A DNA stretch of 63,999 bases, counting the filler, from Stramenopiles sp. TOSAG23-3 (taxonomy: Eukaryota): NCBI GenBank assembly GCA_900128585.1. It is 3 parts of 3 records of this genome, joined end to end, with 100 filler letters (N's around TTAATTAATTAA, not from the genome) between each part and the next. Parts side by side here need not be neighbours in the genome. Positions count along the whole stretch, not along the records: positions 43,086 to 63,999 come from LT642365.1; 2 more parts are not named here. One strand, given 5' to 3'. The notes beneath the pieces are model-generated. The model searched no databases. It was not told where the DNA came from and was given only the letters and a program-made list of their open reading frames with translations. Position 1 is the stretch's first letter, and each line of letters starts with the position of its first letter. Shown here piece after piece: positions 4,468 through 63,283 of the stretch. Made by a program: the position numbers and the translations under genes.

Positions 4468-4685
4468 AGCGATATACATGATAAATGTAAAAACAGCAAT
4501 TTAAAAAAAAAACTTAATTCAGTTTATCTAGCTTGAAATTAAAAACAAAGTAATGGCTATTATTATTTACGAAGTAGGTAAAAACTTATCTAAAACAAAA
4601 TAATTTAATGGTCTAAACAATACTAAAAACAAAAATTCAATTATCAGCCAATTTTTTGTTTTATTTAGGAAATTCTTAGGTATTT

Positions 4686-4859
4686 AAAACAAGAAAATTG
4701 GCTGTTATTTATTCATAAATTGATTAGTGAAATTACAGGAGCAGAGATAAGTTCGCAGTACATGAAGGAATGTAAACCTATACTGGACAAAAGGAGCAGA
4801 TTCACATCCGCGGTACACGAGGAAGATAAATTTTAAATAACAGCCAATTTTTTATTTTT
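4686..4859. mobile_element. MITE-like element bounded by ~25-bp inverted repeats (family A)
   Basis: AAAACAAGAAAATTGGCTGTTATTT at 4686-4710 and its near reverse complement at 4835-4859. The internal sequence recurs at ~33320-33365 and ~40878-40965. Confidence 0.5.
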
Positions 4860-4894
4860 ACAAAAGTAAAGGTTTATCACTCTGATTAAAGTCA

Positions 4895-7800
4895 TCATTT
4901 TGCAGAAATGCATGCGCGTATAAACATATCGTAATAAACTTTTTGGCCAGATGTGCGTGGTTTCTTTTCAAACACTTCTAATACGGAAAAGAAATCGTTT
5001 TCATCCATATTCAATGAGTACTTGGCAAGAATTTCTCGAAATTTTCTGCCTGGTATGTATCCTTTACGAGATCGGTCTATTCGCTTGAGCTCGAGCCGAA
5101 TGGGTTTCCACATGTGCATCATTCTTTCTTTTAATTTTCTGCACACCATTTTAGAAGCATTTGTATGCATTGGAGCAGCATTATTAGTCTGTTGCAATTG
5201 TTTGGTAAAAAGGTCATCTGCATCAACGGACATGACTCGATATGAAGATACCGAAGAACAAATAGAGGCAGTATCAAATGGCTCGGGCGTATCGTTAGAC
5301 GCGACGGAAGGCGTAATGGTGACAGACATTGCATATTTGCTGGGGTTTTTTTTCGGCGCTCGGTCGTTGTTGCGCACTACTGCTGCTTTTTCTCTTTGTG
5401 GATTTGAAGAATATAACGCCCTTGAATCCTTTTTCTTTCCTTTTTTGCTGAAAGTGTATTTAGACGAATGCTTCTTTTTCTTCAAAGACTGGACTTTCGC
5501 TCGAAGCTTGTTATTTCTGATTACCGCTAGTGATGGCGCGGAAGCACTGGGGCGTAACGATACCTTTCTTGGTATGTAGGTCGGTGCCCTCCTAACGCTT
5601 TTGGAACTTTCGTCCACAGTAAAGTACTTTATAAACTCAGTGTACGATATCCCCTTCCCATTTGAGGAATTTCCGAATAGTTTTTTCAGAAATCGCATTG
5701 TTTCTTCAGACAAGTGGACATTAAAACCATACAGCACTCTTCGAAATGTGTTTGGGCTCAAATAACCTTTTCTTCTCGTGTCTTGCCCTTTCAACATGCT
5801 TAGCAAACGTTTCCATGAAGACTTCACCACCTGTCTCAACTCACTCATCGCGGTTTCGGGTGCATGCAATCTTTCGTGCAAAGTATTAGCTAAATCTGCA
5901 GTCGATCTTGATCGGAACCCAGATCTTAGTAACGTTTTTCCTTGGCGGCCTATACGTGGGGTATATTTAGCACCGTGTTTTCTTGGCTGGTACATTCTTG
6001 CTGTAATGACCTTGGGAGCCCCAAGGATGGCAATCAACTTCTTATACTCGACGCTTGCGCGTCGGCTACAACCGGCCAGTCTTACGATTTCAAGACAGTC
6101 TGCATCATTACAGTGAATTCCCATTTGGCAGATAACAAATCTCAACTCTGCTCGTGTTACCAGACCGTTTGAAAATCGGCAAACTGCATCTAATTTTTTC
6201 TGGAGTTCAGACGATCGGCGCAAAACCAGTTTCACTAAGCGTCTCCCAATAGGGTGATTTGCAACACGGCCATGGATTTCTTCCATACTATCTTCTGGTT
6301 TCGGTGATATTGTGAGTGGCTTCGAGGCATGGTTTGGGGTTGCTGGCCTAATTTTAAGGCGGCTAGTGCTTACTCTCTTTGCTGTCCTCGGTTGTGTTTT
6401 AGGCAGAAACCGTTGATAGAGTTTCTTCATGTTTTGCTCAGTAATTTCGAGGTTGAAATGGATACGAACGACTCTCTGGAATTCTTCAAACGATATGTCA
6501 CCACTAGCGTCATGGTCAAATTTTTGAAACGCCAAGTACAGTTCCCGAGGTCCCCCTTTAGTTTTCATCATGATCTTCTCGCGGAGAATCATTTCTAGCT
6601 TGTCCACAGACATAACTTGGGACGCAACCATAGCATTACGTGCCATCAAACTTGCTGCCTGGCGCTGCGCCTGTCTTTGCCCGGCCCGCGTTGAGCCTCC
6701 TGGCATGCCGCCCATATTTTTGAGCTTGTCCGCTGGTATAAAATCGTCAGGTAATAAATGCTTGATGAAGTCATAATATTGTATGTGACCAACATTGCCT
6801 TTATCGTAGCGATCAAAAAGTTTTGCGAGCGTGTGATTGTCAAGATTGAGATTCCATTGATTCAAGATATGTGAGAACTCTTCAAAGTCAATGACCCCGT
6901 CCTTATTGGTATCAAATTTTCGAAATGTACGAAATAGTTCCGAGCCACCAGCTTTCGATTTCCCCATAATTTTGTCCCGTAGAATTTGCTCCAAATGTGC
7001 AACGGTGTCCAGTCCAGTATAGCCAACTTCTACATTATGCGTGCTTAGGAGTTTAGCTTTTTCGTAACCAGACATCGTGTCACGAGCGTAATCACTAGAG
7101 GGCAACGGCGATGAGCTTCCCATCTTCTCAATGAGCGAGTTTTTATCTGGAAAATCAGCTGGCATCAAATGTTGAAGAAATTCGTAATACTTGATGTGTC
7201 CCTTACCGTCTTTGTCGTATCGTCGGAACAACCTGTTCATGTCATTGCGGCCCATATTTAGATTCCACTTATGCATTATTTCCCTAAATTCCTTGGAGTC
7301 TATCACCCCGTCTTTGTTGGTGTCGAACTTGCGAAAAGTTCGGAACAGCATGGACCCCCCGGCTTTGGTTTTGCCATTAATTTTTTCTCTCAGTATATTC
7401 TCCAACTGATCGTCCGAACCTAACCCGACTGCTCCCCGCCTCGCATTGCGCTCTGCTCGTTGCGCGGCTAAGGTCAACTTATTTTTTGAGGGGTCTTCTT
7501 TGGTTTGACCTGGAAGGCCTCCCATTCCTTTCATTTTCTCCAACGAAACAAAATCGTCTGGCAACAAATGTTTAATAAATTCATAGTAGCTTACGTGCCC
7601 CTTTCCGCCCTGATCATACCTATCGAATAGCTCGTGGAGCTCTTCGTCGTCTAAGTTCATGTTCCACTTTAGCATTCCATTCTTAAACTCTCCAAAATCA
7701 ATAACGCCGTCTTTGTTTATGTCAAATTTACGAAACATTCGGAAGAGTACTAGCCCGCCACTTCTGGTTTTACCACGAATTTTTTCTCTCAATATTTTTT

Positions 7801-17380: not shown

Positions 17381-18582
17381 CTAGTTTTCTGTTGTACTGT
17401 TTTTTTCCATATTGATTACCACTCTTCCACCCGGGTGGTGCGACATGACGCGTTTTAATGCCTTGCGTATCGGTTCTTCCGAAAAGGGGACCTCTTCCGC
17501 CACGAAAGCACGTGCACCATCTTTGCGCGACGCGTCCCACATGTCTTGTTTAAGTGGAGGGTAGGATCCAATCATGACATACTTATACGACGAGCAACAT
17601 CCGCAAAGAGATTTACCAAGATGAAAACAAACTGCATTGAACATCTCGCCACCGGTCAGTTTTTTTTCACTGCTCATGTATATTGTGGGCCCCACGACGG
17701 TGACAAACAAGCCGCCCTTGCTGAGCAACGGGACTGCTTGCCCTTGTACCTCCTTGCCACCGACGTAGTCGAAGACGACTTGGAACTTCTCCTTCTCGGC
17801 CAGCTGTTCGCCAAAAGACTTTTGGGTGTAGTCGATAACTTCGTTTGCCCCCATCTTTGTCGCCGCCTCGGCATTCTTCCCGCTGCAAACAGCGGTGACA
17901 TGGCCTTTGTATTTGCGCAACAATTGGAGCATCAACTGTATAGGTGTTAGAGTATTAAACGTTAGAGAGAGCCGGAGAGGTTTAACAAATCGAGAAAACA
18001 GAAATTACTTACCGAACCCAGAGCACCAGATGCACCAATTACGAGGCACCGGAATCCACCAGCAACTAAAGGCCTGGTGGCACTTTTGATCGCGTGAAAG
18101 TTTACGAAAGCTCCCATGGCCATAGCGGCCGCGTCAACGAAAGAGATGCTGTCGTCTCCGATTAAACAAACGTCGCTTTCAGGGATAACCGTTCGTTCCG
18201 CCCAAGTTCCTTCCGCAGTATTAGGCGTTAGCAGATTGATGAACCCACATACACGATCCCCTACTTTCAGTTTCTTACAGTCTGGACCACATTCCAAAAC
18301 GACGCCAGCAAAGTCCTGGCCCCCAACCACGGGCTGGGCAACCGTCGGTTTGCGAGTGTGGTATCCCATGCCCCCGCACGCAGTATCTTGCAACAACGGA
18401 CAGTCGTCAACATTGATCGACGCAGCCTTAATGCCGACAATCACTTGGTTCTTTGTCGGTGCCCCTGGCGCTGCGATCGGTCCAAATTTAATTTTTTCGT
18501 ATACAGTCCCAGGCTCGCACCATTCCGTAATGTGTGCGGCCAACATTGTCTTACCGTCCTCCTGCGCGATCACTTTTGCCAT
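17381..18582 (-). CDS. MDR-family NAD(P)-dependent quinone oxidoreductase/alcohol dehydrogenase-like protein; 2 exons (18582-18013, 17935-17381)
   Basis: VGIKAASIN, GQDFAGVVLECG..KLKVGDRVCG, LVIGASGALG, GANEVIDY, GRVVI. The two provided ORFs join in frame across a 77-nt intron. Confidence 0.9.
17936..18012 (-). other. Spliceosomal intron (77 nt)
   Basis: The minus strand reads GTAAGT...CTCTAAC...ATACAG. Removing it gives the in-frame join ALGS|LMLQLL. Confidence 0.9.
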
Positions 18583-21459: not shown

Positions 21460-21559
21460 NNNNNNNNNNNNNNNNNNNNNNNNNNNNNNNNNNNNNNNNN
21501 NNNTTAATTAATTAANNNNNNNNNNNNNNNNNNNNNNNNNNNNNNNNNNNNNNNNNNNN
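21460..21559. other. Artificial contig-joining spacer
   Basis: 100-nt block of N with a central TTAATTAATTAA (stops in all six frames). Confidence 0.95.
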
Positions 21560-33525: not shown

Positions 33526-36500
33526 TCAAAAAGAATTTTGTTTTAGTAGGTTACGTTTAGATTCTCTTCGTTTGAAAGACAAGTGCATACCCGACGGTAC
33601 GGAGAGTGCGGAGACGAGAGAATTTTCCTTACTAGAAATGCTCTCCACTATTTCTTCAGGGCCAATCATTTCTAATGTAGTGATCAGCTCATCAAACGTT
33701 ACTTTATGGTCTACCAATTCAATATCGGCATCAAATATCATTTCCTCTGCTAACTGTTCGTTTACTGTAATCCCGTGCCTTCCTCCATACCGTTGCACAG
33801 ATTCAATTAGGGCCTCTTTTGTGATGACTTGCTTCGCCAACTCTTCCGGGTTCATACTCATAGGCTCTTTACAATTGCATAGCTTCCCAAAGTCTACTTC
33901 CATTTCGCTGTCAAGTTTCTCTAAGTGCAAATAAGTCGCAACAACTGACACAAGTGCTTCAAACGAAATATTCCCCTCGCGGTTGACGTCCCATTCGTTC
34001 ATGATACAATCTAGTTCAGAATCGTCCTCCTCATGACCAAGATCTTTCATTAGCTCTTGTAACGCCTTTTTTGTGAGCACTTTCTTACCGTCTTTTTCTA
34101 AGGCATACTGCTTAAAAATTTTGTGCAGACTGGCTATTTCTACCTCTTTCAGATTCGCCAGCGTTAGCTTCTCAACCATCTTTAAGAACATATCGATACC
34201 TATTTTTTCGGACTTCTTATTTTGTGGTTTCTCCTCGCTCAAAAGTGTATGTAAATTACGAACTTCTTGAATTGTTGGAAATATGCCCAAGTCCATAATT
34301 GCCTTTTGGGTAAGACCAAGCGAAATTCTGCCGTCAGACTTTAGGTTAGCGCTTGGGGACTTAAGGTTAGCATCAAAGACTGCTTCACTTTGATCATTTA
34401 AATGAAATTCAAACCATTTTTTGGCCTTTTTTTCTTGCATTTGCGAAAGGTGCGGGTTACACTCTCCCCATTCTGCCGATTTCCCATTTTCCTGATTCAG
34501 AGCTACTTTGAGGTCGCCCGTCGGAAGGCGCTGCAGTTTCAAGTGTCTAAAGTTGTGCACGTGGTGATCAGCATCGTACTGCATCAACGTTTCAACTTGC
34601 TCAGCCTTACCGGAATCATCTCCATGCACCATCCTCCAATCCAGCGCTTGAGTTTGAAAATCTAAGTGCGCTTTTCTGATTTTGCTCAGAACAGTCGATC
34701 CAAGGTTCAGAGTCAGACTGTTATGGAAATCTCCAGCGCTCTCCGTGACACGTGCTGTCTTTTTGCTCGTGGGCTCTTTCCCGTGCTCTAAGCTATGAAG
34801 ATCACGTTCTAACCTCTGCCGCACCGACGAGGAATGGCGGAGTATGTGTTGAGTTACGGCAAGAGCCAAGCGAGGCTCATTTTGTTCCATCAGCTTTAGT
34901 TTTTCTTTAGATATGCACCAAAATGTGCTGTCTTTATCAGCGACGATGGAATGGCTCACCGGTAAGTTTAGGAATATGCAAGCATCATTGACTACGGCCC
35001 CTTTCGAGACAGTTTGTATTCGTTGGACTACTCCACTGTCTTGCGCCGTGTAGGAGGTTACCCTTCCAGTTTGCAAAATGAAAATAGAAGAGTTCATTTC
35101 ACCTTCCTTACACAAGAAGTCCCCCTTCTTTATTTCCTTCAGTTCGGCATATTCCCAAATATTATGGCCTACATTAGACCCTATTGCAATTTCAAACTCT
35201 TGATATTTCTGCTTTTCCAACGATTCTTTGTGTAATTTGATAAAAGAGTCGAACACCAGCCATTTCGATCGCACTCGGGACGCCCGAGTCAATATTTTGT
35301 CTTCAATCAGTTCCATCCCGTAGTCTATGTCAGGTGCTATGAGTATGCCAGCAGCCGACGCTGAGCCACGATGTCTGTGTTCTTTGTTTTCACCACCATC
35401 TTCCATCCCTGGAATAAGTCCGTAACGCATGAACAAAAGGTCCAGCTTGGCAGAGTTTTGGCCCATTTTCGTCAAGCCGGTGTAACAAATACTAATTGCA
35501 CTTCCATCGTGGTTTTGTACGTACCGCTGGACGTCTTTGAGCATCTTTATACCAGACTCATCGACAGATTGCACATGCTCGAAGTCGAACAGAAAGTAGC
35601 GCGTTTGCTCGGGACGCCGACGTTTGCTACTTTCTTCGAGGATCGACTTAACTCTCTCAAATATGGACGCGGCCGAAGCAAAGAAAATGAACCCGTCGAA
35701 CTGCAGTACGCTGACTCTCTGGCCCACACGAGTCAGAAGGGCTTCTTCCCAATAGCTTCGCACAACTTTACTTCGCAGAAGCCGTCCATCGGTGGCATTT
35801 CGTATGACAGTTATTTGCGTTGACTGGAAGACAAATGCAAACACTGAGATGACAATACCCAAAACGACGCCATCGAGCATTGCGTGGGTCATATGCAGCA
35901 CCTGGTCAACAAAGATGACGACCACTAAGATAAAGTAAATAGTGAATATATCTACGTACTTCATCGTGTAGCAAGGCTTGTACAGGTAGTTGTCGATGAA
36001 AGGCATGGCAGCGTAGAAGAGCAAACTGCTGAGCAGAAAGCGGGGCAGAATGTTCAGCAGCGGAACCGCACCACCACACAGCCACATTATCCCGCAGAAT
36101 AGGCCAACTCCGTAGCCCACTCTCGTTTCAAGCTTATTCCCTAAGATTCCGTAACTAAGAATATTGAACTTCACCTGGGGGTAACCTGGAGCTGAAATTC
36201 CAGCAAGTGCAGCGACCACGTTTTCTTTCCCAGTCAACTCTATTTCGTACCGTACGTCGACTTCCATTTCCAGGGCACTTTTGGTAGCAGCCAGTTTCAA
36301 CAACGAATCGACCACAAGAATAATCATCATGACGATCATGTCAGGCAACGATTCTCTGACCGCCCCGAACGCTATTTTATCCTTCTGAAACCACTGCCCA
36401 TAGGACTCCGTGTACAGTTCCCAAAATGGACGGTGAGCAAAGTCAGGAAACATCACACCCCATTCTCTGTAAGTCGTCAGGGGCTCACCGATGGCCAAGA

Positions 36501-37371
36501 ATACAATGTAAAATACGATCAAAGGTGCAAACAGGAATGTTGGCAGAATAACCATAGCACCACCGTATTTTTGAAAGAAATGCTCACGTTTCAAGAAAAA
36601 GAGTGTGGTCCCGAGAATGAGTGAAACAAAAAGCATGATCCAAGGAACCAACTCCGTTTCCTGTCGTCCAAGCGCAACTTTCCCAGCATATTTAAGCACT
36701 TTCCAAGCTATGCAACCGAGAAAACCGTTTACGACCGGTTCAGGGAGAAACTGCACAATTCTCGTGGCGCCAATATAGCCAAGAATGTACCAGACAAAAC
36801 CCATCAGAAAAGTAGACAAAAAGATGAGAAATGTCAACGTCGGAACTGCCTGTTCCTGGGGATACTTCGTCAACACTTTTGCCCAATTGACTACGAACAG
36901 ACAGGCAATTATGTCCGGGCCACTTATGTTTATTTTAATTTTCGATAACTTGGAAGTTATCAAACAAGTTATCAGAGTAGAAGAGCACTGAACTCCCACC
37001 CCAATCGCCAACGATTCGCGGAACATTTTGTATGTGGCCTTGTCGTCATGAATAATAATTGCACCAACCATACAAAATATGTACTTCAGGAAGCCCAGTA
37101 CGAAAACGTCGACTATCCACCTCATCTGGTACTGCCAGCCAACTGGTAAGGTGGGCTTCGCATCATGGTCTTCGCCTCTAATGGTCAGGGAAGCATCCAG
37201 GCTATTCAACAACTTAACATGCTGTTCTACAGCCATGCTTTTTTTCGCCGTTTTGTCAATTTTTGACGGTTGGAATTCTGCAAGTTCCACGGCAACGTCG
37301 CCAGTGACTGTTGCGACTTCTTCGTCGTCTGAAGAGTCTTGTACCTTGCTAGCATTGTTTTCAGTTTCCAT
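33526..37371 (-). CDS. SLC26/SulP-family transporter with STAS, cyclic-nucleotide-binding and EF-hand domains
   Basis: ISGPD, VQFLPEPVVNGFLG, multiple TM segments; STAS motifs LQFDGFIFFASA and FLFDFEHVQSVDESG; cNMP-like KKGDFLCKEGEMNSSIFILQTGRV; EF-hand WDVNREGNISFEAL. Confidence 0.85.
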   Translation of the reverse strand: METENNASKVQDSSDDEEVATVTGDVAVELAEFQPSKIDKTAKKSMAVEQHVKLLNSLDASLTIRGEDHDAKPTLPVGWQYQMRWIVDVFVLGFLKYIFCMVGAIIIHDDKATYKMFRESLAIGVGVQCSSTLITCLITSKLSKIKINISGPDIIACLFVVNWAKVLTKYPQEQAVPTLTFLIFLSTFLMGFVWYILGYIGATRIVQFLPEPVVNGFLGCIAWKVLKYAGKVALGRQETELVPWIMLFVSLILGTTLFFLKREHFFQKYGGAMVILPTFLFAPLIVFYIVFLAIGEPLTTYREWGVMFPDFAHRPFWELYTESYGQWFQKDKIAFGAVRESLPDMIVMMIILVVDSLLKLAATKSALEMEVDVRYEIELTGKENVVAALAGISAPGYPQVKFNILSYGILGNKLETRVGYGVGLFCGIMWLCGGAVPLLNILPRFLLSSLLFYAAMPFIDNYLYKPCYTMKYVDIFTIYFILVVVIFVDQVLHMTHAMLDGVVLGIVISVFAFVFQSTQITVIRNATDGRLLRSKVVRSYWEEALLTRVGQRVSVLQFDGFIFFASAASIFERVKSILEESSKRRRPEQTRYFLFDFEHVQSVDESGIKMLKDVQRYVQNHDGSAISICYTGLTKMGQNSAKLDLLFMRYGLIPGMEDGGENKEHRHRGSASAAGILIAPDIDYGMELIEDKILTRASRVRSKWLVFDSFIKLHKESLEKQKYQEFEIAIGSNVGHNIWEYAELKEIKKGDFLCKEGEMNSSIFILQTGRVTSYTAQDSGVVQRIQTVSKGAVVNDACIFLNLPVSHSIVADKDSTFWCISKEKLKLMEQNEPRLALAVTQHILRHSSSVRQRLERDLHSLEHGKEPTSKKTARVTESAGDFHNSLTLNLGSTVLSKIRKAHLDFQTQALDWRMVHGDDSGKAEQVETLMQYDADHHVHNFRHLKLQRLPTGDLKVALNQENGKSAEWGECNPHLSQMQEKKAKKWFEFHLNDQSEAVFDANLKSPSANLKSDGRISLGLTQKAIMDLGIFPTIQEVRNLHTLLSEEKPQNKKSEKIGIDMFLKMVEKLTLANLKEVEIASLHKIFKQYALEKDGKKVLTKKALQELMKDLGHEEDDSELDCIMNEWDVNREGNISFEALVSVVATYLHLEKLDSEMEVDFGKLCNCKEPMSMNPEELAKQVITKEALIESVQRYGGRHGITVNEQLAEEMIFDADIELVDHKVTFDELITTLEMIGPEEIVESISSKENSLVSALSVPSGMHLSFKRRESKRNLLKQNSF

Positions 37372-42985: not shown

Positions 42986-43085
42986 NNNNNNNNNNNNNNN
43001 NNNNNNNNNNNNNNNNNNNNNNNNNNNNNTTAATTAATTAANNNNNNNNNNNNNNNNNNNNNNNNNNNNNNNNNNNNNNNNNNNN
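42986..43085. other. Artificial contig-joining spacer
   Basis: Same 100-nt N/TTAATTAATTAA block as at 21460. Confidence 0.95.
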
Positions 43086-43588
43086 GGGGGTCTTTTGTCC
43101 TCCTTTCGTGTATAATGCAATGTCTGCTGAGCGGCTGGGGTTATTTAATCGCCTGTTCCGTAAGTGCATTTTTCAATAGTTTCTACTAAAAGGATACTGT
43201 TTCTGGTCTTTCACCACCTGTTTCGTTCTTTCTTCTTCTTCTTCTTGTTTTTTTTTCTCTCTGCTGCGTTTGCTGCTGGCTTCTTCTACTACTACTACAG
43301 GTATTAATACCCGTACCGGTACCGTACTCTAATCAATCGTGATCTTCTCCTCCGCCGTTCTCTTCCTTCTTCTTCTTCGTCGTTCTTCAGCAGCAAAAAA
43401 AGAAGAAGGAGAGGTACCAACACACGGCAATACCAGGGAAACATATTAATATAGAAATAGGGAGGGAGGGTGGTTTGTCTCTTCATTCTTCATCATATCG
43501 ATATTTATTATTTTTTATTTATTATAAATAAAATATTATTTTTATTATTGTCCATTATTAGACCTACTATACTGCTTTAAAAAAATGA

Positions 43589-49856: not shown

Positions 49857-50222
49857 ATTATTATATATATTACAGTACACAGTATTACACGTATTATATT
49901 TTATTATTTTTTTTTTTAATAATAATAAATAATAAAAAAAAAAATTTATACAACATGATTGATGTAAGAAGAAGACGACTATTACGACTTACTAATAATA
50001 ATTATTTATTATTATTTATTAATCTCCTTCTTCTTCTTTCTTCTTCTGTAGTACTACTGGTACCGTACCTTATTAATACCAGGTACCCGAACAGGTATTA
50101 AATCCTGGTACCGGTATTGTACTTTGCACGATTAGTGCACAGGGGGGGGGGGAATTAATAATACCTCTCGGCGTGCACACACCTTTTTTACCAACTTGTT
50201 TNNNNNNNNCACCTTTTTTACC

Positions 50223-52393: not shown

Positions 52394-54538
52394 ATGTTGT
52401 CAAAGTTACAGACGGCTGCGACGGTTTCGACGTTTGGGACCGCCCGCCGTGCATTTACTGCAGCTGCCGCCGGAGGAGAGGACGGGATGTTTAAGAAAAT
52501 ATTGATCGCTAATCGTGGAGAAATTGCATGCCGTGTGATAGAAAGTGCAAAGAGAATGGGCATACAGACGGTTGCGCTGTATAGCGACATTGACCAAAAT
52601 TCCAAGCATGTCTCGTTGGCGGACGAAGCGTACTACGTTGGACCCAACCCAGCCAGTGAGTCGTACTTGCTCGGGGACAAGATTCTAGAGATTTGCAAGC
52701 AATCTGGCGCGGAGGCAGTCCATCCAGGGTATGGATTTTTGAGCGAAAATGCAGGGTTCAGTGAGGCCTGCGCTAGCAATGGGATAAAATTCATCGGCCC
52801 CCCTGCCAGTGCCATCGTCGATATGGGCAGCAAGAGCGCGTCGAAGGATATTATGATTGCCGCCGGCGTGCCGGTCACCCCGGGCTACCACGGCGAGGCC
52901 CAGGATCTCGAAACCCTGAAATCGGAGGCCCGAAAAATGGGATACCCGGTCATGATTAAGGCGGTTCTGGGGGGGGGTGGAAAAGGCATGCGCGTAGCCT
53001 TGACTGAGGACGTCTTCGAGGAGAACCTGGACGGTGCACGGCGCGAGGCCATGAAGTCGTTTGCGGACGACCGCGTGTTGATCGAACGTTTCTTGGTAAA
53101 GCCCAGGCACGTTGAGCTGCAAGTCTTTGCCGACGAACATGGAAACTGCGTTCACCTTTACGAACGGGATTGCAGCGTTCAGCGAAGGCACCAAAAGGTT
53201 TTGGAAGAAGCCCCCGCACCCGGGATGACAAAAGAGCTGCGCGATCGTATGGGCACTGCCGCGGTCAACGCTGCGAAGGCGGTCGGCTATGAAGGGGCGG
53301 GAACCGTTGAGTTCATGCTGGATGACGATGGAGAAAGCTTCTACTTCATGGAAATGAACACTCGCTTGCAGGTCGAACACCCTGTGACGGAGATGGTCAC
53401 TGGGGTCGACTTGGTCGATTGGCAGCTGCGCATCGCAGCAGGCCACCCCCTGCCAATGTCCCAAGACGAAATCCCCCTCACCGGGCATGCCATCGAAGCA
53501 AGAGTGTATGCTGAAAACCCCGAAAACGAATTCCTGCCAGCCAGTGGTCCGGTGGCGTTCATGGATTTGCCAGACCACGTGTCGTTTAAGAACGGGGACA
53601 TTCGAATCGATTCTGGGGTACGCGAAGGCGACGATGTTTCCATATTTTATGACCCAATGATTTCCAAACTGATCGTCAAGGGTAATGACCGGGACGAGGC
53701 GTTGCGACTCCTCGACCAGGCGCTTAAAAACTACCGTGTTGTTGGCCTGCCAACGAACATCGAATTCTTGAGGAAAACGGCATCTCACCGGGCCTTTCGG
53801 GAGGCGGAGCTAGACACGAACTTTATCGAGAAGAACTACGACGAACTGCTCCCAGTCGCCCAGCCGACCCCAGACCGTGTTCTTGTTTTGGCTGCCCTTG
53901 CCCGGTTGCTTGAAGAAGCCGAAAGCCTGAGCTCCAACGCGTCGCCGTGGGGCAACGTAGCCGGTGCAGGTGCAAGGTTCACGGGGGAAGGCGGACGAGT
54001 GAGAACGTTAAACTTCACGGGAAACAACGGTAGTGAAGACCTTTCGGTTGCGGTAAAGTATTTTCCCGGGAGTGACGGGGATGAGGTCAAGTTTTCGGCC
54101 GATGTTGGTGGAGAAAGCGACGTTGTCGTCCGGGGACGGCTCGTAGGCAAGTCAAAGATCCTTGCATTCTTTGGGAAAGAACGCGTCACTGCAACTGTCA
54201 ACCGGCACGGGGATACGTTCTCTGTTTTTTGTGACCAAGGTGATTTCAAGCACGTTTATAACGTCGATGTGGCGCCCCTTGACTTGGGCGATGACTCGGG
54301 CGCAAAAGGGAAGTTGAACGTTTTGACACCAATGCCTGGCACGGTCATTAAAGTCATGGTTGGCAAGGGGGACTCGGTGGCGAAAGGTGAGCCTATGATG
54401 ATTTTGACTGCAATGAAAATGGAGCATATTATACGAGCCCAAGCTGATGGGACGATTGCAAGCGTTGGTTACGGGGAAGGGGACTTTGTCGAAGATGGCA
54501 AAGTTCTCATCTCATTTGTTGATGAAGACGAGGAGTAG
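52394..54538 (+). CDS. MCCC1: 3-methylcrotonyl-CoA carboxylase alpha subunit, mitochondrial
   Basis: KILIANRGEIACRV, HPGYGFLSENA, MGSKSASKDIM..AGVP..GYHG (MCC-like), ERDCSVQRRHQK, EMNTRLQVEHPVTE, biotin site AMKME. Presequence MLSKLQ...RRAFT. Confidence 0.88.
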   Translation: MLSKLQTAATVSTFGTARRAFTAAAAGGEDGMFKKILIANRGEIACRVIESAKRMGIQTVALYSDIDQNSKHVSLADEAYYVGPNPASESYLLGDKILEICKQSGAEAVHPGYGFLSENAGFSEACASNGIKFIGPPASAIVDMGSKSASKDIMIAAGVPVTPGYHGEAQDLETLKSEARKMGYPVMIKAVLGGGGKGMRVALTEDVFEENLDGARREAMKSFADDRVLIERFLVKPRHVELQVFADEHGNCVHLYERDCSVQRRHQKVLEEAPAPGMTKELRDRMGTAAVNAAKAVGYEGAGTVEFMLDDDGESFYFMEMNTRLQVEHPVTEMVTGVDLVDWQLRIAAGHPLPMSQDEIPLTGHAIEARVYAENPENEFLPASGPVAFMDLPDHVSFKNGDIRIDSGVREGDDVSIFYDPMISKLIVKGNDRDEALRLLDQALKNYRVVGLPTNIEFLRKTASHRAFREAELDTNFIEKNYDELLPVAQPTPDRVLVLAALARLLEEAESLSSNASPWGNVAGAGARFTGEGGRVRTLNFTGNNGSEDLSVAVKYFPGSDGDEVKFSADVGGESDVVVRGRLVGKSKILAFFGKERVTATVNRHGDTFSVFCDQGDFKHVYNVDVAPLDLGDDSGAKGKLNVLTPMPGTVIKVMVGKGDSVAKGEPMMILTAMKMEHIIRAQADGTIASVGYGEGDFVEDGKVLISFVDEDEE

Positions 54539-57176: not shown

Positions 57177-58676
57177 ATGCGTACTGCAGTCGCAAGAATT
57201 TTCGCGTTTCAAAACTCTAGAATTGGAGCACCTTCGGTTCGAACTGCGAATAGGGTCCTTATGTCAACCGTTAGTGTTATTGGTACTCAGCTCGAATGTG
57301 CTGGGTGTGGACATATAGAGGATGGGCTCGCGAATATTTTGTTTAAATGCCCGAATAGCGAGAGCAGCCCTGAGTGCGACCACGTGTTGGCACCCAAAAC
57401 CCCTGGAAAGGACTGTACTGCAACTTTGCAGAACGGGTGCACGTTCCCTGCAGAGGAGATCAACGAAATACCCTTCCTGCGGTACCGTGCTTTGCTATAC
57501 CCTTACCGCATTGCAATCGCAAAGGGGATGTCGGATGAAGTGTACGTGAACATTATCCAGGACTTGAACAACGAGCTAGTCGCCGTTGGTGGCACCGGCT
57601 TTACCGAAACGCCGCTGCTGTGGAACAACGAGCTGAACAGTTTCGTAAAAAATGAGACTCTCAATGTGGCCCAGTCCCACAAAGCCCGTCACCTGTTTAA
57701 CCTGATGTCCTATTTGCTTGTCATGTCTTATGGGGAACAGGGTGTGGGGGGCGGGTTGCGCAATAGACGGTTGGCCGTAGCCAGCTGTGGCAATGCTGGC
57801 TTGGCGGCGGCGACCGTTGCCGCCGCTGCAAAATGGCCCATTGACGTTTGCATCCCCCCAGATGCCGAGCCCGCCGTCGTTGAACAGCTCCATCATTTGG
57901 GAGCTAGCGTGCACATTTGTCGCCGTGATGCAGATTTTGTCGAGACTAGCCTTGGCAAAATATCGTCAAAGGGCGAGGCCGACCCCACGCTTGCAGTATT
58001 TAAGAATTTAGTAAAAGACCATGGAAGCATCCCTTTCAGTGTCCAAGGCTCCGAATGTGGGTTAGGGGTCGAGGGATCCCAGACAATTGCATGGGAGGTG
58101 CTGGAAGCAATGCAGCGGGACTTTCATGATTCCAAGTCGCCCGTGGAAAACTCTACGATAGAGAACGTTTTCATCCAAGTGGGCGGGGGGGCTCTGGGCT
58201 CTGGGATGATTCAGGGGTTCCAGCGTGCGTTGGATGGGGAGCTAGAACAAGTGAATCCCACCCTTGGGTCGAATGTAATCAGGTCGTTGCCGAAACTCTT
58301 TTGTATTCAGCCGGTAGGGTGCGGGCCGTTGAAGCGAGCACTTGACGAAATGAAAAAGAACGACATTACCAACGGCAAAACGGCAGCAAAAGACAGGGCA
58401 ACGTACATGTACCCCTGGGAAAATCCTCACTCCATAGCGCATGGTATTTTGGACGATGAAACCTACGATTGGTTGTCCTTGGTGGACGGAATGATTTCGA
58501 CGGAGGGGGGGGCTTTGCTTGTGGACGATGACAGTATTTGTGAGGCAAAGAAATTCGCTGAGGAACAGTTCGGTTTGAACCCTTGCCATACTGGTTCGGC
58601 TGGGTTGGCGGGTTTGATGAAGAACCGAAAGGAGGGGGTCAGTTTGGTAGTATTAAGTGGCCTTGATCGATCGTAA
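57177..58676 (+). CDS. Threonine-synthase-like PLP-dependent enzyme (fold type II) with presequence
   Basis: N-terminal CAGC...CPN...DH putative Zn site; TPLLW; PLP-lysine motif KNETLNVAQSHKARH; ASCGNAG; QVGGGALGSG; GSAGLAG; VLSG. The ATG at 57177 starts an Arg/Ser/Ala-rich leader with no acidic residues. Confidence 0.8.
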   Translation: MRTAVARIFAFQNSRIGAPSVRTANRVLMSTVSVIGTQLECAGCGHIEDGLANILFKCPNSESSPECDHVLAPKTPGKDCTATLQNGCTFPAEEINEIPFLRYRALLYPYRIAIAKGMSDEVYVNIIQDLNNELVAVGGTGFTETPLLWNNELNSFVKNETLNVAQSHKARHLFNLMSYLLVMSYGEQGVGGGLRNRRLAVASCGNAGLAAATVAAAAKWPIDVCIPPDAEPAVVEQLHHLGASVHICRRDADFVETSLGKISSKGEADPTLAVFKNLVKDHGSIPFSVQGSECGLGVEGSQTIAWEVLEAMQRDFHDSKSPVENSTIENVFIQVGGGALGSGMIQGFQRALDGELEQVNPTLGSNVIRSLPKLFCIQPVGCGPLKRALDEMKKNDITNGKTAAKDRATYMYPWENPHSIAHGILDDETYDWLSLVDGMISTEGGALLVDDDSICEAKKFAEEQFGLNPCHTGSAGLAGLMKNRKEGVSLVVLSGLDRS

Positions 58677-59976
58677 CGCATCGCTAGCTTTTTAAAAGTT
58701 TATAATTAATACGCTGTAGCATGTAAATACAATTAAGGAGATTTAGGAATAATAGTTTTATCCTTTTCCGCAGTATTGAGTATTGTGCACATTACGGAGA
58801 AAGGTGGGGCAAGGCCACAGTAAGAGTATGTAATAAGTACGGTACCAATAAGGCCGGTGTAATAAATAGAAAGAAGGGACACTGTCCTTATTATACTGTA
58901 AATTTTATATCCATCAAGGGCCAAAAAAATAGAAGAATAATAATAAAATAATAATAATACAGTATATAATACAACAAAAACAAAATATTGAAGAAGAACA
59001 ATAACCACGAACGGGTGGTGCTGGTGCCATGTAAACTGTAAACCATAAAAAAAAGATTCATTTTTTCTGCTGATGGAAGCCAAACGTAAGGTATTGTATA
59101 CATTATTACGTATATATATATAGATAGGGAGAGGAAGTCTATATGCTGTGTGTATATTTATGGAGAAATACGTGTCGTTTCGCGAATAAAGTGCATGCGC
59201 CTTAATAATTGTGGCTTATTTCGCCCACGGGTTCAATTTTTCAATTTTCGTTCTTTACCCCTTTCCTTCCCCTATTTTTATCCCAGTTAAAATGATGCTG
59301 AATTATAAATAAGGTTTAAATAAGATTAAAACTAGTTTCTTCTCTCTTCATTATACAACATATCCTTAATAAAGAAAGAGAAGCTTATCGAAAACAATTG
59401 AATCCTTTTTGAGTTTATTTCAGTTCTATTTATATGTATGCACGTCAGATACACCTTCCTTATTAAAATAGATAGGGTCAATACTCCTAGTGTACTTTAA
59501 TGGTGGTAGTCTAATGATGAACGGATGGGTGGTGGATTTTGTGGTTGTTGTGTTCGATCAGTGTTCGTTAATTTATTAAAATAATATACAAAACAGCATG
59601 AAAGTACCCTGGTACGGTAGTGTTATTATTTATATATAGCTAGATAGGAGGAGGGGGGCTACCACCACCAAATAATAATAAAATTAAAAAAAAATAAAAA
59701 AAATTTTTTTTTAAATAATAATAATAAAATTATACAACACAACAGTACCGGAGTGGAACCCGTACCTTGTAGTAGAAATAATAATGCTTCTGCTTTTTTT
59801 CCCTTTTTTTCCACCATTTACTTTGTGAATGTTATAATGGTATATCTAAACAAAATTTACATGTTTCACCTGGACAGCGAGGAGAAATTGTCTTTTTTAA
59901 GAAATACATACCAATCCTAAGTACCAAAAAGTTCAAACTCACAAATACTTACCAGCAACAACTTTCCGCACGAGGT

Positions 59977-62565
59977 ATGAACAGTTTCCTTCAAAAGGCA
60001 TGTCGAGCGTCGGGAAAGAAGGGCCGTTTGGGTAGCATCGCGCGTATCCCCAGAACGGGGTCCTCGGGCGCGTCCATTCGGTTTACCTCTGTGTCAAATG
60101 CTGCAAGATCAATCGGTCAGCTTGAGCCGGTGTCCTACCTCGAAACAACCTTCTCGCTGGAAGAACTGCAGAACACTAAATATACGGGCTATGACGTGTG
60201 CGACAGCAGCCCAATTTGCCACGACGTAGGAAATACCCCATTGGTGCACTTGGAAGACGAAATATATGCCAAACTAGAAGGGCACAATCCAGGGGGAAGC
60301 TTGAAGGACCGAACCATTTCGTCCATACTGCTCCACATGTTTGAAGAAAAAAAGTTGCGGCCGTCTGGGGAGACCATTTGCCTCGTTACGTCAGGCAGTG
60401 CAGGTGTCTCGCTCCGAAAGGTTCAGCAGGACTTGACGAAACTTGGATTGCTTGACTTCAACGTCGTCGTAGTAATACCAAAAGCGTACTGCAGCAAGAC
60501 TGCCCCGAGCGCATTGGCATCGAAAGTGCCGGGCAGTATTTTTGAGGACGTGGGCGGGCGACAGGCGCAAGTTGCCGTCGAGGACGACAATAAGCCTCGG
60601 AACCGCTTTGACCTGATATTTGCGGACGGTGTGTTCATAGACGTCTTGGCAGAGTACGAAGCCCACGCCAAGGAGTTGGGCTGGAGCATGTTGGAACAGC
60701 ACTACGATGCAAACTCGATGAAGGGTCACCGCAGCACTGCGAAAGAGATCATGATGCAGTGCCCAGATGTGACTGACATCATCGTTTCGACCGGAACAGG
60801 GGCCACGGCGGCCGGCCTTCGAAATTTCATGCCTGACCACGTCCGAGTCCACTCGCGCCCAGCAGAGTCTGGGACGATCGATGGACTCACGAACGTGCAA
60901 CGCTACAACAATTTTTGTGATTCCTCCCGTCTGGTAGGATATAATGACTGTGTCTTTGACAAAGCGCATGCGGAGGACGCTCAGAAAGACTTGGAGGAGA
61001 AAGGAATCGTTGCTGGACCAAGCAGTGGCGCTACCTTGTGGTTGGCCCGCCAGCTTTCGCGTGAAAGAGTGGAGGAAAAAAGAAAATTTTTGGTCATTTG
61101 TGCGGACGGTAAACTTGAGGAAACGTCAAAATCCAGCAACGGGCCGCAGCACGCCCGTAGGTCTCAAGGCCTTTTGAGCAGCTGTGGACTCCAAAATCGG
61201 TCGCATGCAAGAATGTACTCTACTTCCCGAGCCGCATTTAGTGAACCGAGCGTCCCAGTGAAAGATTATATAGTAGTAGGTGGTGGCCCCGTCGGAGCCT
61301 CGACGGCATGGTTTCTGTCCGAAAAGGAAGTAGAAAACGAAAAGTCTATTTTGCTTATTCACGACCCCAAGAACAAGGGTGCGCACGAGGACTGGAGCCG
61401 CCTTGCGCGACTGTCTTTTGATGGCCCCATCGAAGAGATGGAGTTGTCGCGGCATGCTGTAGAATTGTTAGACTTGCTTGACGAAGTGCAGAGCATGAAT
61501 AGTGGTGCGCCAATCGTGCCGTTGCGGCCTGGAATGTTGTTTTTGGCCTCCCCTGGAACCAACATGGCTCGAGTGTGCGCGCACGGCGAGTCGTACGGGG
61601 ACAAATCGTTTGTCCCCGTAGACCCGAAAGATTTGGAGAGCTTGTTCCCTGGAAATAAATTTAGCCTTCCCCCAGATACCCTCTGCTGGACCCATCCGAC
61701 TGGGCTGTGCGTGTCTCCGTTGGAATTGGCCTCTGCAGCAAGAAAAACTGCTGAGGCGTATGGTGCGGAAATCATTGAAGGGCGTGCAACTATCGATGCG
61801 CTTCCTAGGTCCGAAGACAAAGTCAGGGTCACACTAGAGGATGGACGGGTCTTTGACACTCCAAAATGTTTCCTGTTCGCGGGAGCCCAAAACAAGACGA
61901 TTTTGAAGAATGCCATAGAGCGGGATCCCGCAGCAAATGCGGTCCTGGGCATACCAGAGTTCGACGAGACGTACATCACCGCGATCTCCACCATTCGATA
62001 CAAGCATGTGAATCACCCTGCCAACCCAGCGCCTGGGTCTGGGCATGTCCCCACTCCGATAACTCTTGGGCAATTGGAAATTCCCGGTTTGATTGATTTT
62101 CAGGCTAACTTTAGTATAGTAGCCGAAGAGTACGGCGATGTCTTGAAGACGCGTCTTTCTGGGTCAATCGGTAGCGAAACGATAGAGTCTGTTGCAGACA
62201 TGCACAACATTGGAGATGATCAAAATGCTGAAATGGCAGAGACATACCAAAACTTTTTTGGGAACCTTTTTCCGTTTTTGGACACGGAAGAACCACTCGA
62301 CTTCAACCGTTGCGTAACGTACAGAAACCACAACCCGAATTTTAGTGGCACGAGTATTCTTGAAAAGAAAGTCGGCGGCGCGTCCATTTTGACCACACCT
62401 GGTTGCTTTGGTGTAGGGGTTAAGTTTGGGCCGGCGCTCGGAGAAGCTGCCACTGCGCACGTGTTAAATAATGAAGTTCAAACGGGGATGAATGTGTTTC
62501 AATCAGGGTCGAAAGAATTGGAAACTGCAGACGAAGATGCAGACCGTGTTGAACGGGCCTGGTGA
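59977..62565 (+). CDS. Fusion of a cysteine-synthase-like PLP enzyme and a sarcosine-oxidase/DAO-family FAD oxidoreductase
   Basis: N-half: VGNTPLV, YAKLEGHNPGGSLKDR, TSGSAG, STGTGAT, AGPSSGA, ICADG. C-half: DYIVVGGGPVGASTAWFLS (FAD Rossmann fold), HEDWSRLAR, GVGVKFGPALGE. One uninterrupted 862-aa ORF. Confidence 0.85.
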   Translation: MNSFLQKACRASGKKGRLGSIARIPRTGSSGASIRFTSVSNAARSIGQLEPVSYLETTFSLEELQNTKYTGYDVCDSSPICHDVGNTPLVHLEDEIYAKLEGHNPGGSLKDRTISSILLHMFEEKKLRPSGETICLVTSGSAGVSLRKVQQDLTKLGLLDFNVVVVIPKAYCSKTAPSALASKVPGSIFEDVGGRQAQVAVEDDNKPRNRFDLIFADGVFIDVLAEYEAHAKELGWSMLEQHYDANSMKGHRSTAKEIMMQCPDVTDIIVSTGTGATAAGLRNFMPDHVRVHSRPAESGTIDGLTNVQRYNNFCDSSRLVGYNDCVFDKAHAEDAQKDLEEKGIVAGPSSGATLWLARQLSRERVEEKRKFLVICADGKLEETSKSSNGPQHARRSQGLLSSCGLQNRSHARMYSTSRAAFSEPSVPVKDYIVVGGGPVGASTAWFLSEKEVENEKSILLIHDPKNKGAHEDWSRLARLSFDGPIEEMELSRHAVELLDLLDEVQSMNSGAPIVPLRPGMLFLASPGTNMARVCAHGESYGDKSFVPVDPKDLESLFPGNKFSLPPDTLCWTHPTGLCVSPLELASAARKTAEAYGAEIIEGRATIDALPRSEDKVRVTLEDGRVFDTPKCFLFAGAQNKTILKNAIERDPAANAVLGIPEFDETYITAISTIRYKHVNHPANPAPGSGHVPTPITLGQLEIPGLIDFQANFSIVAEEYGDVLKTRLSGSIGSETIESVADMHNIGDDQNAEMAETYQNFFGNLFPFLDTEEPLDFNRCVTYRNHNPNFSGTSILEKKVGGASILTTPGCFGVGVKFGPALGEAATAHVLNNEVQTGMNVFQSGSKELETADEDADRVERAW

Positions 62566-62752: not shown

Positions 62753-63283
62753 TCACTCTTTCAAACGAACAATGCATTCAACGGTGACTGCCGCTGGCAA
62801 CGACCCTGCACCTGTGCAAGTGCGTGCGTGCCTTCCTCTATCGCCGAGGCATTCTACGAGCATGTCCGATGCACCGTTAATTACCTTTCCGTGCCCAATA
62901 AAGTCCGGAGTCCCATTGACAATTCCGACTACTTTTACCATTTGTTCGACCTTGTCTAAGTCACCGTCACAATAGTGAGAAATCGTAGAAAGCAAACGAA
63001 GTGCGGCCTGACCCGCTAGTTTCTCAGCTTCTTCTGGAGTAACAGCAGCGTCAGCTCCCTCGCCAACTTTGCCGCGCACTGTTTGTGCATTTTCATCCTG
63101 TCCTACGTGATCTCCAATATACAACAAGTTTCCATGTCTTTGCCCTTTAACGTAGGACCAGACCGCATCCTGGTACTCTGGCAATACAATCCCCTTCAGT
63201 TTCATTAGCTTTTCTGTGTGAACCAGACGCCTGGAAGAGCCAGAGAGCAGCTTCGCGCCTACCTTGAGACTGCGTGTAAGCAT
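62753..63283 (-). CDS. Rid/YjgF/UK114-family protein (long Atu1372-like subtype) with presequence
   Basis: SYVKGQRHGNLLYIG, GKVG, GDLDKVEQMVKVVGIVN, VINGASD...GRHARTCTGAGSLP. Leader MLTRSLKVGAKLLSGSSRRLVH. Confidence 0.9.
   Translation of the reverse strand: MLTRSLKVGAKLLSGSSRRLVHTEKLMKLKGIVLPEYQDAVWSYVKGQRHGNLLYIGDHVGQDENAQTVRGKVGEGADAAVTPEEAEKLAGQAALRLLSTISHYCDGDLDKVEQMVKVVGIVNGTPDFIGHGKVINGASDMLVECLGDRGRHARTCTGAGSLPAAVTVECIVRLKE

Follow-up and report, generated by a model that had tools for sequence, protein, structure and literature searches.

A tandem CysK-like and sarcosine-oxidase-like protein in marine stramenopiles as a predicted mitochondrial precursor with an internal cleavage site

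Does a long reading frame that joins a cysteine-synthase-like domain to a flavin oxidase encode one enzyme with two active sites, or a precursor that is divided into two enzymes? This question is raised by a frame in a 63,999-nucleotide stretch of DNA (the window) from Stramenopiles sp. TOSAG23-3 (GCA_900128585.1), which an earlier note had described as an unusual fusion enzyme. The explanation that we favour, to which we give a probability of roughly 0.45 as a whole, is a tandem mitochondrial precursor whose two products would work in a pathway of amines and 2,3-diaminopropionate (Dap). The locus has a single open frame, two folds with retained catalytic residues, a conserved motif at the junction and recurring gene partners; import, cleavage and every substrate are what we infer from these.

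The frame is confirmed as real, being neither a chance product nor a mis-assembly. It is the sole match of its kind in the assembly of this organism, has no internal stop and lies on a single contig that is colinear with the window from position 56100 to the end. Pfam places a PALP domain at residues 83-375 (E 1.1e-22) and a DAO domain at residues 430-646 (E 1.3e-15), and both were found in 25 of 48 near-full-length homologues, a number counted among the best 8000 candidates scored; five of these 25 also carry an N-terminal alpha/beta-hydrolase domain. The proposal that one frame, which has 862 codons, joins a CysK/CysM-like enzyme to an FAD oxidoreductase was well founded. The same frame is kept in ten members of the cluster of homologues, drawn from several sources. 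A cluster of homologues at 65% identity includes a protein labelled Stramenopile-MAST_4 and is itself sister to the window protein in our tree, which makes a marine stramenopile related to MAST-4 the probable host. Complete transcript-derived fusion proteins exist for Mataza and Incisomonas. Metatranscriptome contigs from 4 of 24 listed RNA runs were compared with the locus. Two of these, X1 (61082-61690) and X2 (60946-61295), each from a different study, read across the linker without a gap or a letter change there, so that a stop or break between 61100 and 61270, against which the earlier note had advised a check, was not observed in them, although RNA contigs across a junction cannot prove one mRNA. 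The RNA contigs also cover three neighbouring frames and leave the intergenic bins at 58592-59935 without cover. In two RNA runs of one study a G to T change at 60209 converts Ser78 to Ile, which is a strain difference and not a stop. An AlphaFold model from 116 sequences (mean per-residue confidence, pLDDT, 86.9; predicted template-modelling score, pTM, 0.63) has two well-folded domains, and the disordered stretches are residues 1-41 and 386-421 (pLDDT < 50). A complex prediction of the two domains, made without alignments, scored 0.01 and was counted neither way.

Both disordered stretches resemble mitochondrial presequences in composition. The first 45 residues contain nine Arg/Lys and no Asp/Glu, with a hydrophobic moment of 0.67, and the 25 residues of the linker up to R412 contain four Arg/Lys and no Asp/Glu. 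The linker ends in R412-M-Y|S-T, which fits the consensus RX(F/Y/I/L)|(S/A)(S/T) for the mitochondrial processing peptidase (MPP) and Icp55 (PMC8847149). Within the 40 residues before the FAD-binding GGGPVG, the motif R-x-[FYL]-[SA] was found in 22 of the 27 fused homologues with an intact junction, where shuffling of the same segments gave a mean of 2.9 and a maximum of 8 in 2000 trials; control segments inside the oxidase carried it in 51 of 1882 cases. A wider form of the motif, chosen after the data had been seen, occurs in 25 of the 27. Eleven hand-picked representatives of different tree clades, the Incisomonas protein not among them, all have the motif (shuffled mean 1.4). When 20 homologues are compared with the window protein, the linker is 16% identical and the motif 57%, the PLP (pyridoxal phosphate) domain 49% and the oxidase 67%. 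The linker varies from 38 to 120 residues in length. The strict motif also closes the presequence-like N-termini of 8 of 12 standalone oxidases. In the linkers the motif is often present in tandem copies. Of 23 parsed linkers, five have no methionine and two, including that of the window protein, have their only methionine inside the motif; an internal start codon therefore cannot supply the presequence in these seven.

These features make it probable, as judged from sequence, that the protein is a precursor of the Arg5,6 type that is cut in mitochondria into two enzymes, and the single fusion enzyme of the earlier note is probably not the final product. The presequence-like N-terminus would direct import of the precursor, MPP would cut after Met413 and Icp55 would trim Tyr414, leaving a mature oxidase that starts at Ser415 and two matrix enzymes of one pathway. 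Tandem precursors cut by MPP are represented by yeast Arg5,6 and Atp25, S. pombe Rsm22-Cox11 and rice RPS14 (PMC8734313), and the present protein resembles them in having a presequence-like N-terminus, two folded enzymes and an internal presequence-like segment with an R-2/Icp55 site. It is also like them in that the junction is kept across fused homologues and split genes with their own presequences occur elsewhere. The precursors described in that source come from fungi and plants, whereas the present ones come from stramenopiles and a cercozoan, contain other enzymes, have a predicted cleavage and would use such sites at several of the junctions within a single pathway, the order of its parts being shuffled. 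Among other junctions of this gene set the motif was observed in two of three ThrC-like to GNAT junctions and in two of four CysK-like to ThrC-like junctions; the wider form was found in none of six bacterial oxidase-PALP linkers and none of seven MetX-PALP junctions. Proteins P0439, P0430, P0450, P0434, P0442, P0295 and P0024 were noticed as polyprotein-like fusions of the same gene set in varied orders, with several linkers of the R-x-F-S-T type. Standalone PLP proteins ending in remnants of the linker were considered and rejected, with the motif in only one of 63 tails.

The two halves were found to belong together, as they are kept as PALP-oxidase fusions, as oxidase-PALP fusions and as separate genes. 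With the PLP domain as query, and among the best 120 of 2392 matches, 82 proteins were found at 34-54% identity before a drop to generic CysM/CysK proteins at 26-30%. In a quick maximum-likelihood tree of 77 rows, the 67 family members form one clade (SH-aLRT 100), and the ten canonical CysK/CysM/Cys1a-type rows fall outside it, including both ordinary cysteine synthases of this genome, one of CysK type (L032) and one of Cys1a/PRK10717 type (L029). Fused and unfused forms alternate in the PLP-domain tree. The grouping of the bacterial, viral and P0305 long branches is unreliable in this tree and we therefore claim no direction of transfer. Named carriers are MAST-4, Incisomonas, Triparma, Mataza, dinoflagellates and Picozoa; the PALP-oxidase fusions span stramenopiles and one cercozoan, and in the dinoflagellate Gymnodinium smaydae each half is a protein of its own. 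The reverse order, oxidase-PALP, occurs in Legionellaceae and Silvanigrellaceae records. In one Legionellaceae locus (L004), flanked on both sides by LuxR-type genes, a HAD phosphatase gene is accompanied by an intact PLP gene and by an oxidase to which a PLP copy without the lysine is fused. At this locus (1-5871) the HAD phosphatase and PLP proteins were seen to start with basic presequence-like extensions, which is unusual for bacteria. A likeness to the Photorhabdus pcf operon (LuxR, cysteine synthase, oxidase) was considered and found no support, as the paper on it gives no list of its enzymes. Two giant-virus contigs hold the PLP gene alone among unrelated viral genes (L002:7998-8891 and L003:5200-5943), where it is a candidate auxiliary metabolic gene. 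The viral proteins are compact and presequence-free, with an intact lysine and a loop of the TSGSAG type. A pattern scan of 185,579 prokaryotic genomes with the eukaryotic-form alignment gave no homologue and the same scan with the bacterial alignment gave one locus; a viral scan with the single protein P0172 gave no match and the alignment-based viral scan gave two. Only generic DAO and PALP clusters were found in the ESM Atlas.

The PLP half is, by its sequence, a distinct CysK/CysM-like clade that lacks the loop asparagine. This residue, which in the TSGNT loop binds the PLP hydroxyl (bioRxiv 10.64898/2026.06.04.730285), is replaced in 96 of 97 members, and the QF of sulfhydrylases has become QH (Q241-H242) in 99 of 99. 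The TSGSAG loop that the earlier note contrasted with TSGNTG is indeed present (residues 138-143, nucleotides 60388-60405), although its serine is not fixed: the residue after TSG is S in 87, W in 7, R in 2 and N in 1 of the 97. The Schiff-base lysine K110 is conserved in 94 of 96 aligned members and S349, the pyridine-nitrogen serine, in 99 of 106. Because Lys110, Gln241, the phosphate loop and Ser349 are all retained, the PLP half should be active. Two new invariant motifs, HSRP and RYxNFC, were observed in the clade. The best structural matches are nearly tied (Z 30.1-30.6) and comprise CysM, the O-ureidoserine synthase DcsD, CysK, the lanthionine-forming Fn1220 and M. tuberculosis CysM; the model scores Z 30.6 against CysM 2bht, and the nearest generic sequence relatives of the domain are CysM-type enzymes. 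Compared with CysM/CysK (TIGR01136; PDB 2bht and 1fcj), the domain shares the fold (Z 30.4-30.6, root-mean-square deviation (rmsd) 2.2-2.3), the Schiff-base lysine, the glutamine after the loop, the phosphate loop, the pyridine-nitrogen serine and a linkage to serine acyltransferases, but it has 25% identity, the changes TSGNT to TSG(S/W/R)A and QF to QH, and a separate long-branch clade. NCBIfam scores lie far below the cut-offs (TIGR01136, 80.2 against 344.15; TIGR01139, 69.8 against 350.95; TIGR01138, 64.4 against 394.2), which together with the separate clade agrees with the view that this is not an ordinary O-acetylserine sulfhydrylase.

The first substrate is best indicated by fusion partners. 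In P0295 the partner fused to the PLP domain is a CysE-type serine acetyltransferase (TIGR01172, 209.1 bits against a cut-off of 210.65); in Triparma, P0305 and others it is a MetX-family domain. The closest solved structure to the MetX-family partner is 3vvl/3vvm (E 2e-68; next entry 3e-46), which we take to be the serine acetyltransferase DcsE; presumably 3vvl/3vvm and 3x43, the latter titled O-ureido-L-serine synthase, are DcsE and DcsD of D-cycloserine biosynthesis. The likeness lies in a MetX-family acyltransferase paired with a CysK-fold enzyme that uses a non-sulfide nucleophile, both being top-ranked matches, whereas DcsE/DcsD have no known partner of sarcosine-oxidase type, the protist MetX lacks the exact G-L-S-P turn and the protist system is eukaryotic and would be mitochondrial. 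Since two non-homologous acyltransferases are fused in different lineages, O-acylserine is the likeliest first substrate, and these fusions in other lineages suggest that serine is quite likely converted to O-acylserine by a separate or fused acyltransferase of CysE or MetX/DcsE type. SbnA handles phosphoserine through Arg132, Tyr152 and Ser185 (PMC12414870; bioRxiv 10.64898/2026.06.04.730285). Its glutamate is bound by Lys100, Arg132 and Arg224. When matched through motifs, not by superposition, Tyr152 (after Gln151) is His here and Ser185 (in the STTGS loop) is Gly (loop TGTGA), and the SbnA family TIGR03945 scores 58.5 against a cut-off of 349.95. The analogy with SbnA drawn in the earlier note thus gives way, at the level of substrate, to O-acylserine.

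The flavin half was found to match monomeric sarcosine oxidase (MSOX), MTOX and NikD best (1zov, 2uzz and 2q6u; Z 35.6-34.3), with glycine oxidase slightly behind (33.6). Against MSOX 1zov the fit is Z 35.6 with an rmsd of 2.9 over 373 aligned residues, MTOX and NikD being within about one Z unit, and the dinucleotide-binding GxGxxG is present as GGGPVG. Arg475, Arg478 and Lys816 align with MSOX Arg49, Arg52 and Lys348, and H470 aligns with MSOX His44; R478 is conserved in 44 of 45 aligned members and K816 in 39 of 40. As MSOX Arg52 and Lys348, with Tyr55, clamp the substrate carboxylate (PMC12582975), the flavin half keeps this clamp by sequence. GVGVKF, which had been set against the GHGFKF of sarcosine oxidase, is present at residues 812-817 (nucleotides 62410-62427), with the refinement that it retains the lysine equivalent to Lys348. 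The differences from MSOX, MTOX and NikD are an identity of 16-18%, Phe481 in place of Tyr55, Val in place of His345 and four extra invariant arginines. Across 28 members from eukaryotes and bacteria, little or no variation is seen at Arg674, Lys724, Arg726, Arg778, Cys779, Tyr782, Arg783 and Cys810, and Arg674, Arg726, Arg778 and Arg783 may point to a second anionic group in the substrate. The invariant C779 lies in the strand that matches the covalent-FAD cysteine, presumably Cys315 of MSOX; MAFFT set the MSOX-like cysteine against Y782, and hhalign stopped short of this region. In MSOX, Lys265 and His269 serve in oxygen activation. The counterpart of Lys265 could be either K724 or R726, and no histidine is found at the 269 position in either register. 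NCBIfam scores are again far below the cut-offs (TIGR01377, 16 against 479.65; NF008425, 45.6 against 257), so, as the earlier note had proposed, this half is not an ordinary sarcosine oxidase.

The genes on either side of the fusion, a ThrC-like PLP enzyme upstream and a Rid gene downstream, both have presequence-like starts, and their coordinates are collected with those of the fusion in the table.

Table 1. Positions of the fusion frame, its parts and the adjacent genes in the window
Feature	Position	Strand	Remarks
Whole frame: presequence-like N-terminus, CysK/CysM-like PLP enzyme, presequence-like linker, MSOX-like flavoenzyme	59977..62565	+	862 aa, intron-free
N-terminal mitochondrial presequence-like segment, residues 1-41	59977..60099	+	judged by composition; pLDDT < 50
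Fold-type-II PLP domain, distinct CysK/CysM-like clade	60199..61116	+	
PLP-domain landmarks: Schiff-base Lys110; loop TSGSAG; Gln241-His242; GTGAT phosphate loop; Ser349	60304-60306 (Lys110); 60388-60405 (TSGSAG)		
Disordered, basic, Ser-rich linker, residues 381-428	61117..61260	+	make-up like a mitochondrial presequence
R412-M-Y414|S415-T416, predicted MPP/Icp55 site	61210..61224	+	consensus match; predicted cleavage
FAD amine oxidase, monomeric sarcosine oxidase/MTOX/NikD fold	61261..62562	+	fold and residue matches
ThrC-like PLP enzyme with Cys-rich N-terminal motif and presequence-like start; candidate beta-lyase	57177..58676	+	fused to CysK-like domain in other lineages
Rid/YjgF-family imine/enamine deaminase, presequence-like start	62753..63283	-	same convergent position in related locus L019

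The PLP and oxidase halves were observed to recur, fused or adjacent, with ThrC-like, Rid and GNAT/AnmK-like genes in several lineages of the SAR group (stramenopiles, alveolates and Rhizaria). Of 24 metagenome loci, most of them too short to show neighbours, the fusion or its halves adjoin a ThrC-like gene in two (L005, L006), a Rid gene in one (L019), a MetX gene in one (L011) and a GNAT gene in three (L005, L020, L024). P0024, P0434, P0437 and P0442 join a ThrC-like to a CysK-like domain, and P0430, P0439 and P0450 combine a ThrC-like domain with GNAT and an AnmK-like kinase. In the present genome a GNAT-kinase protein of 626 aa with a presequence-like start is encoded on another contig (L039:1453-3333, minus strand); its kinase domain is levoglucosan-kinase/AnmK-like (E 2.9e-35 to 4zxz), and a second AnmK-like gene is present (L038). 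Relatives of the ThrC-like protein occur in bacteria, with an identity of about 40%. The arginine of the NPYR motif binds phosphate in ThrC, where the motif reads NSVNPYR; the neighbour reads sVQG-s-enGlaveG and the arginine is replaced. Its NCBIfam scores are 17.5 against 167.1 for TIGR00260 and 56.9 against 303 for NF006050, and the DpaL family was absent from the 15 NCBIfam families matched at E <= 0.1. The CysK-like CapA1 and the ThrC-like CapA2 are among its structural matches. A phmmer search of the protein against the PDB gave no match. Bacterial operon context was found for it in none of 401 Pseudomonadota genomes with P0456 and in none of 401 with the alignment; no plasmid match was found with the query P0503 and none in viral contigs, and archaea gave only one weak ThrC.

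From these partners a tentative chemistry can be proposed for the two halves. The presence together of the ThrC-like lyase, the Rid protein and the acyltransferase fusions favours a route from serine through O-acylserine, N-substituted Dap and Dap to pyruvate. After acylation of serine, the PLP half would form aminoacrylate and join it to a non-sulfide nucleophile, most likely an amine, to give an N-beta-substituted Dap; the flavin half would then oxidise the C-N bond of this secondary amine in an O2-dependent step, releasing Dap, a carbonyl compound and H2O2. The ThrC-like neighbour would remove ammonia from Dap or a derivative and Rid would hydrolyse the resulting 2-aminoacrylate or imine to pyruvate; alternatively, the linked GNAT would acetylate Dap or another amine. 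Taken together, we hold these three steps that follow acylation to be possible but somewhat short of an even chance. YgeX is a diaminopropionate ammonia-lyase of reductive urate operons (PMC12507026), and Dap ammonia-lyase frees 2-aminoacrylate, which RidA clears (PMC9127364). A cysteine-synthase-type enzyme has been tied to BMAA (beta-N-methylamino-L-alanine) in diatoms (PMC12184485), which makes methylamine one candidate nucleophile and no more. That case is alike in that an enzyme of this type is implicated in methylamine addition to a C3 amino-acid unit in marine protists, and differs in being reported for protein-bound cysteine (PMC12184485). With SbnA and SbnB, which together were the model for the diaminopropionate idea, the likeness is one of logic, namely that an amine is introduced by PLP-dependent beta-substitution and a C-N bond is then cleaved by oxidation (PMC12414870; bioRxiv 10.64898/2026.06.04.730285). 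The idea itself gains indirect support from the adjacent ThrC-like lyase and Rid, while the SbnAB match extends no further than this logic. SbnB is an NAD enzyme that attacks the alpha-carbon. The present oxidase, a flavin enzyme, differs from it in fold and regiochemistry, as MSOX-type oxidases attack the carbon of the N-substituent.

Several observations weigh against this explanation. The hydrophobic moment of the linker (0.43) is below that of the N-terminus, the strict motif is missing in 5 of 27 junctions and the Incisomonas protein P0022 has neither form. The motif was first spotted by eye in these same sequences, and related sequences are not independent. Import, cleavage and activity are all deduced, targeting being judged by composition. 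The MetX-family partner reads S-F-S-H at 52-55 instead of the serine-specific G-L/I-S-A/P, although its S-L at 149-150 fits S-L/M (PMC9506716) and its best solved relative has G-L-S-P; because of the S-F-S-H turn, homoserine is a possible substrate. No MetX-like or CysE gene was found in this genome, the assembly of which is incomplete. Giant viruses carry the PLP gene alone, which implies that it is useful without the oxidase. The model of the ThrC-like neighbour is nearer to threonine synthases (Z 21.2 and 19.9) than to Dap ammonia-lyase 4d9g (Z 17.0), and the GNAT and AnmK-like kinase partners are without explanation in the favoured pathway. In MSOX the oxidised carbon sits on the nitrogen next to the clamped carboxylate (PMC12582975), and binding of an amino-acid-substituted Dap in this mode would return the amino acid and not Dap; the oxidation step thus needs a shifted binding.

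Sulfur chemistry within the same precursor is the most serious rival, although we consider it improbable on balance. Here the nucleophile that the PLP half adds to O-acylserine would be a thiol, thiosulfate or sulfite, and the oxidase would act on a cyclic thio-imino acid of the thioproline or thiazane type, or would work first and supply the nucleophile. In its favour, the nearest generic sequence relatives of the PLP domain are CysM-type enzymes, and among the structural matches DcsD ranks level with CysM, CysK, Fn1220 and M. tuberculosis CysM (Z 30.1-30.6). CapA1 and CapA2, found among the neighbour's structural matches, both make cysteate. The geometry of MSOX suits cyclic imino acids better than a substituted Dap. 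L-thioproline is accepted by MSOX (PMC12582975). Against these points, the recurring partners were not seen to include any gene of sulfur metabolism, GNAT and Rid suggest amines and imines, and the PLP half departs from the TSGNT and QF that sulfhydrylases have in common.

Whatever the chemistry, the protein could be a true bifunctional enzyme in which the uncut linker is a leftover oxidase presequence that tethers two active sites. The motif could be inherited in this way since standalone oxidases carry it in their presequences, bacteria keep the domains covalently joined without such a site, and P0022 lacks it. We regard a tethered enzyme as unlikely, given that the motif is 57% identical inside a 16%-identical linker of 38-120 residues across stramenopiles and a cercozoan, is often found in tandem copies, recurs at independent junctions, and that fused and split forms alternate in the tree. 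Less likely still is housekeeping cysteine synthesis of the Cys2/Cys1a kind in mitochondria, with the oxidase as an unrelated passenger on a shared import signal. A route that pairs a MetX-family Cys2 with a cysteine synthase is known from eukaryotes (PMC9506716), and unrelated passengers occur in the mitochondrial polyproteins RPS14 and Rsm22-Cox11 (PMC8734313). However, this genome already has its CysK-type and Cys1a/PRK10717-type genes outside the clade, 96 of 97 members have lost the asparagine that binds the PLP hydroxyl, and the two domains are also fused, in reverse order, in bacteria, where there is no import to share. An assembly or gene-calling artefact, for which nothing speaks except the unconserved linker, is refuted by the 25 of 48 two-domain homologues in distant lineages, the shared frame in ten cluster members from several sources and the RNA contigs that cross the junction.

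Elsewhere in the window, N runs lie at 21460-21559, 42986-43085 and 50202-50209, and because the window is joined from contigs, none of the genes before position 43086 neighbours the cluster. Eukaryotic frames in the window include a ribosomal S27-like and a gamma-tubulin-like frame, both recognised by eye, and a methylcrotonyl-CoA-carboxylase-alpha-like biotin carboxylase (52394-54538, plus strand) with a presequence ending in RRAFTA, 2.6 kb upstream of the cluster; this last gene was not seen beside the fusion in other loci. Two consecutive frames at 17381-18582 (minus strand) resemble a single zinc-type/quinone oxidoreductase that an intron or frameshift interrupts. A 1281-aa frame at 33526-37371 (minus strand) was read by eye as a member of the sulfate-transporter family with STAS, cyclic-nucleotide-binding and EF-hand-like parts. 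In this genome a 546-codon open frame also holds a PLP enzyme (L034; contig C834:5900-6481) that belongs with D-cysteine desulfhydrase, ACC deaminase and cysteate sulfo-lyase.

We found no description of this architecture or family, nor, among the papers listed, of such polyproteins in these protists, in the open-access literature, in keeping with the impression that the arrangement is not known from any characterised protein. Taken singly, cleaved tandem precursors, beta-substitution on the CysK fold and oxidation on the MSOX fold are of known kinds; it is these subfamilies, their pairing and the organisation of the cluster as polyproteins that are new. With the tandem precursor and the Dap route as its basis, a broader and speculative picture, which we consider rather unlikely, is a mitochondrial amine-oxidation shunt of marine protists built as MPP-cut polyproteins, in which an amine would be loaded on O-acylserine and oxidised off as a carbonyl, the Dap carrier being burnt to pyruvate and ammonia. 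The amine would come from prey or water; methylamine would give a BMAA intermediate, and the additional arginines, together with the GNAT and the AnmK-like kinase, would be accounted for by an amino acid or amino sugar. If true, this shunt, with another carrier, would be a counterpart of the N-methylglutamate route of bacteria, and bacteria and giant viruses that infect protists would have borrowed parts of it.

The locus marks out a complete candidate set of enzymes, namely an acyltransferase, a CysK-like synthase, an MSOX-like oxidase, a ThrC-like lyase, Rid and a GNAT/AnmK-like kinase, that is conserved in abundant marine protists; its proteins carry the mistaken labels of cysteine synthase, threonine synthase and homoserine acetyltransferase. 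Internally cleaved mitochondrial precursors would thereby be extended from fungi and plants to SAR lineages, where they would be used like a shuffled operon with a precise predicted cut site. If the substituted-Dap chemistry is true, the set would bear on the turnover of amines in the ocean and on the sites where BMAA-type amino acids arise or disappear.

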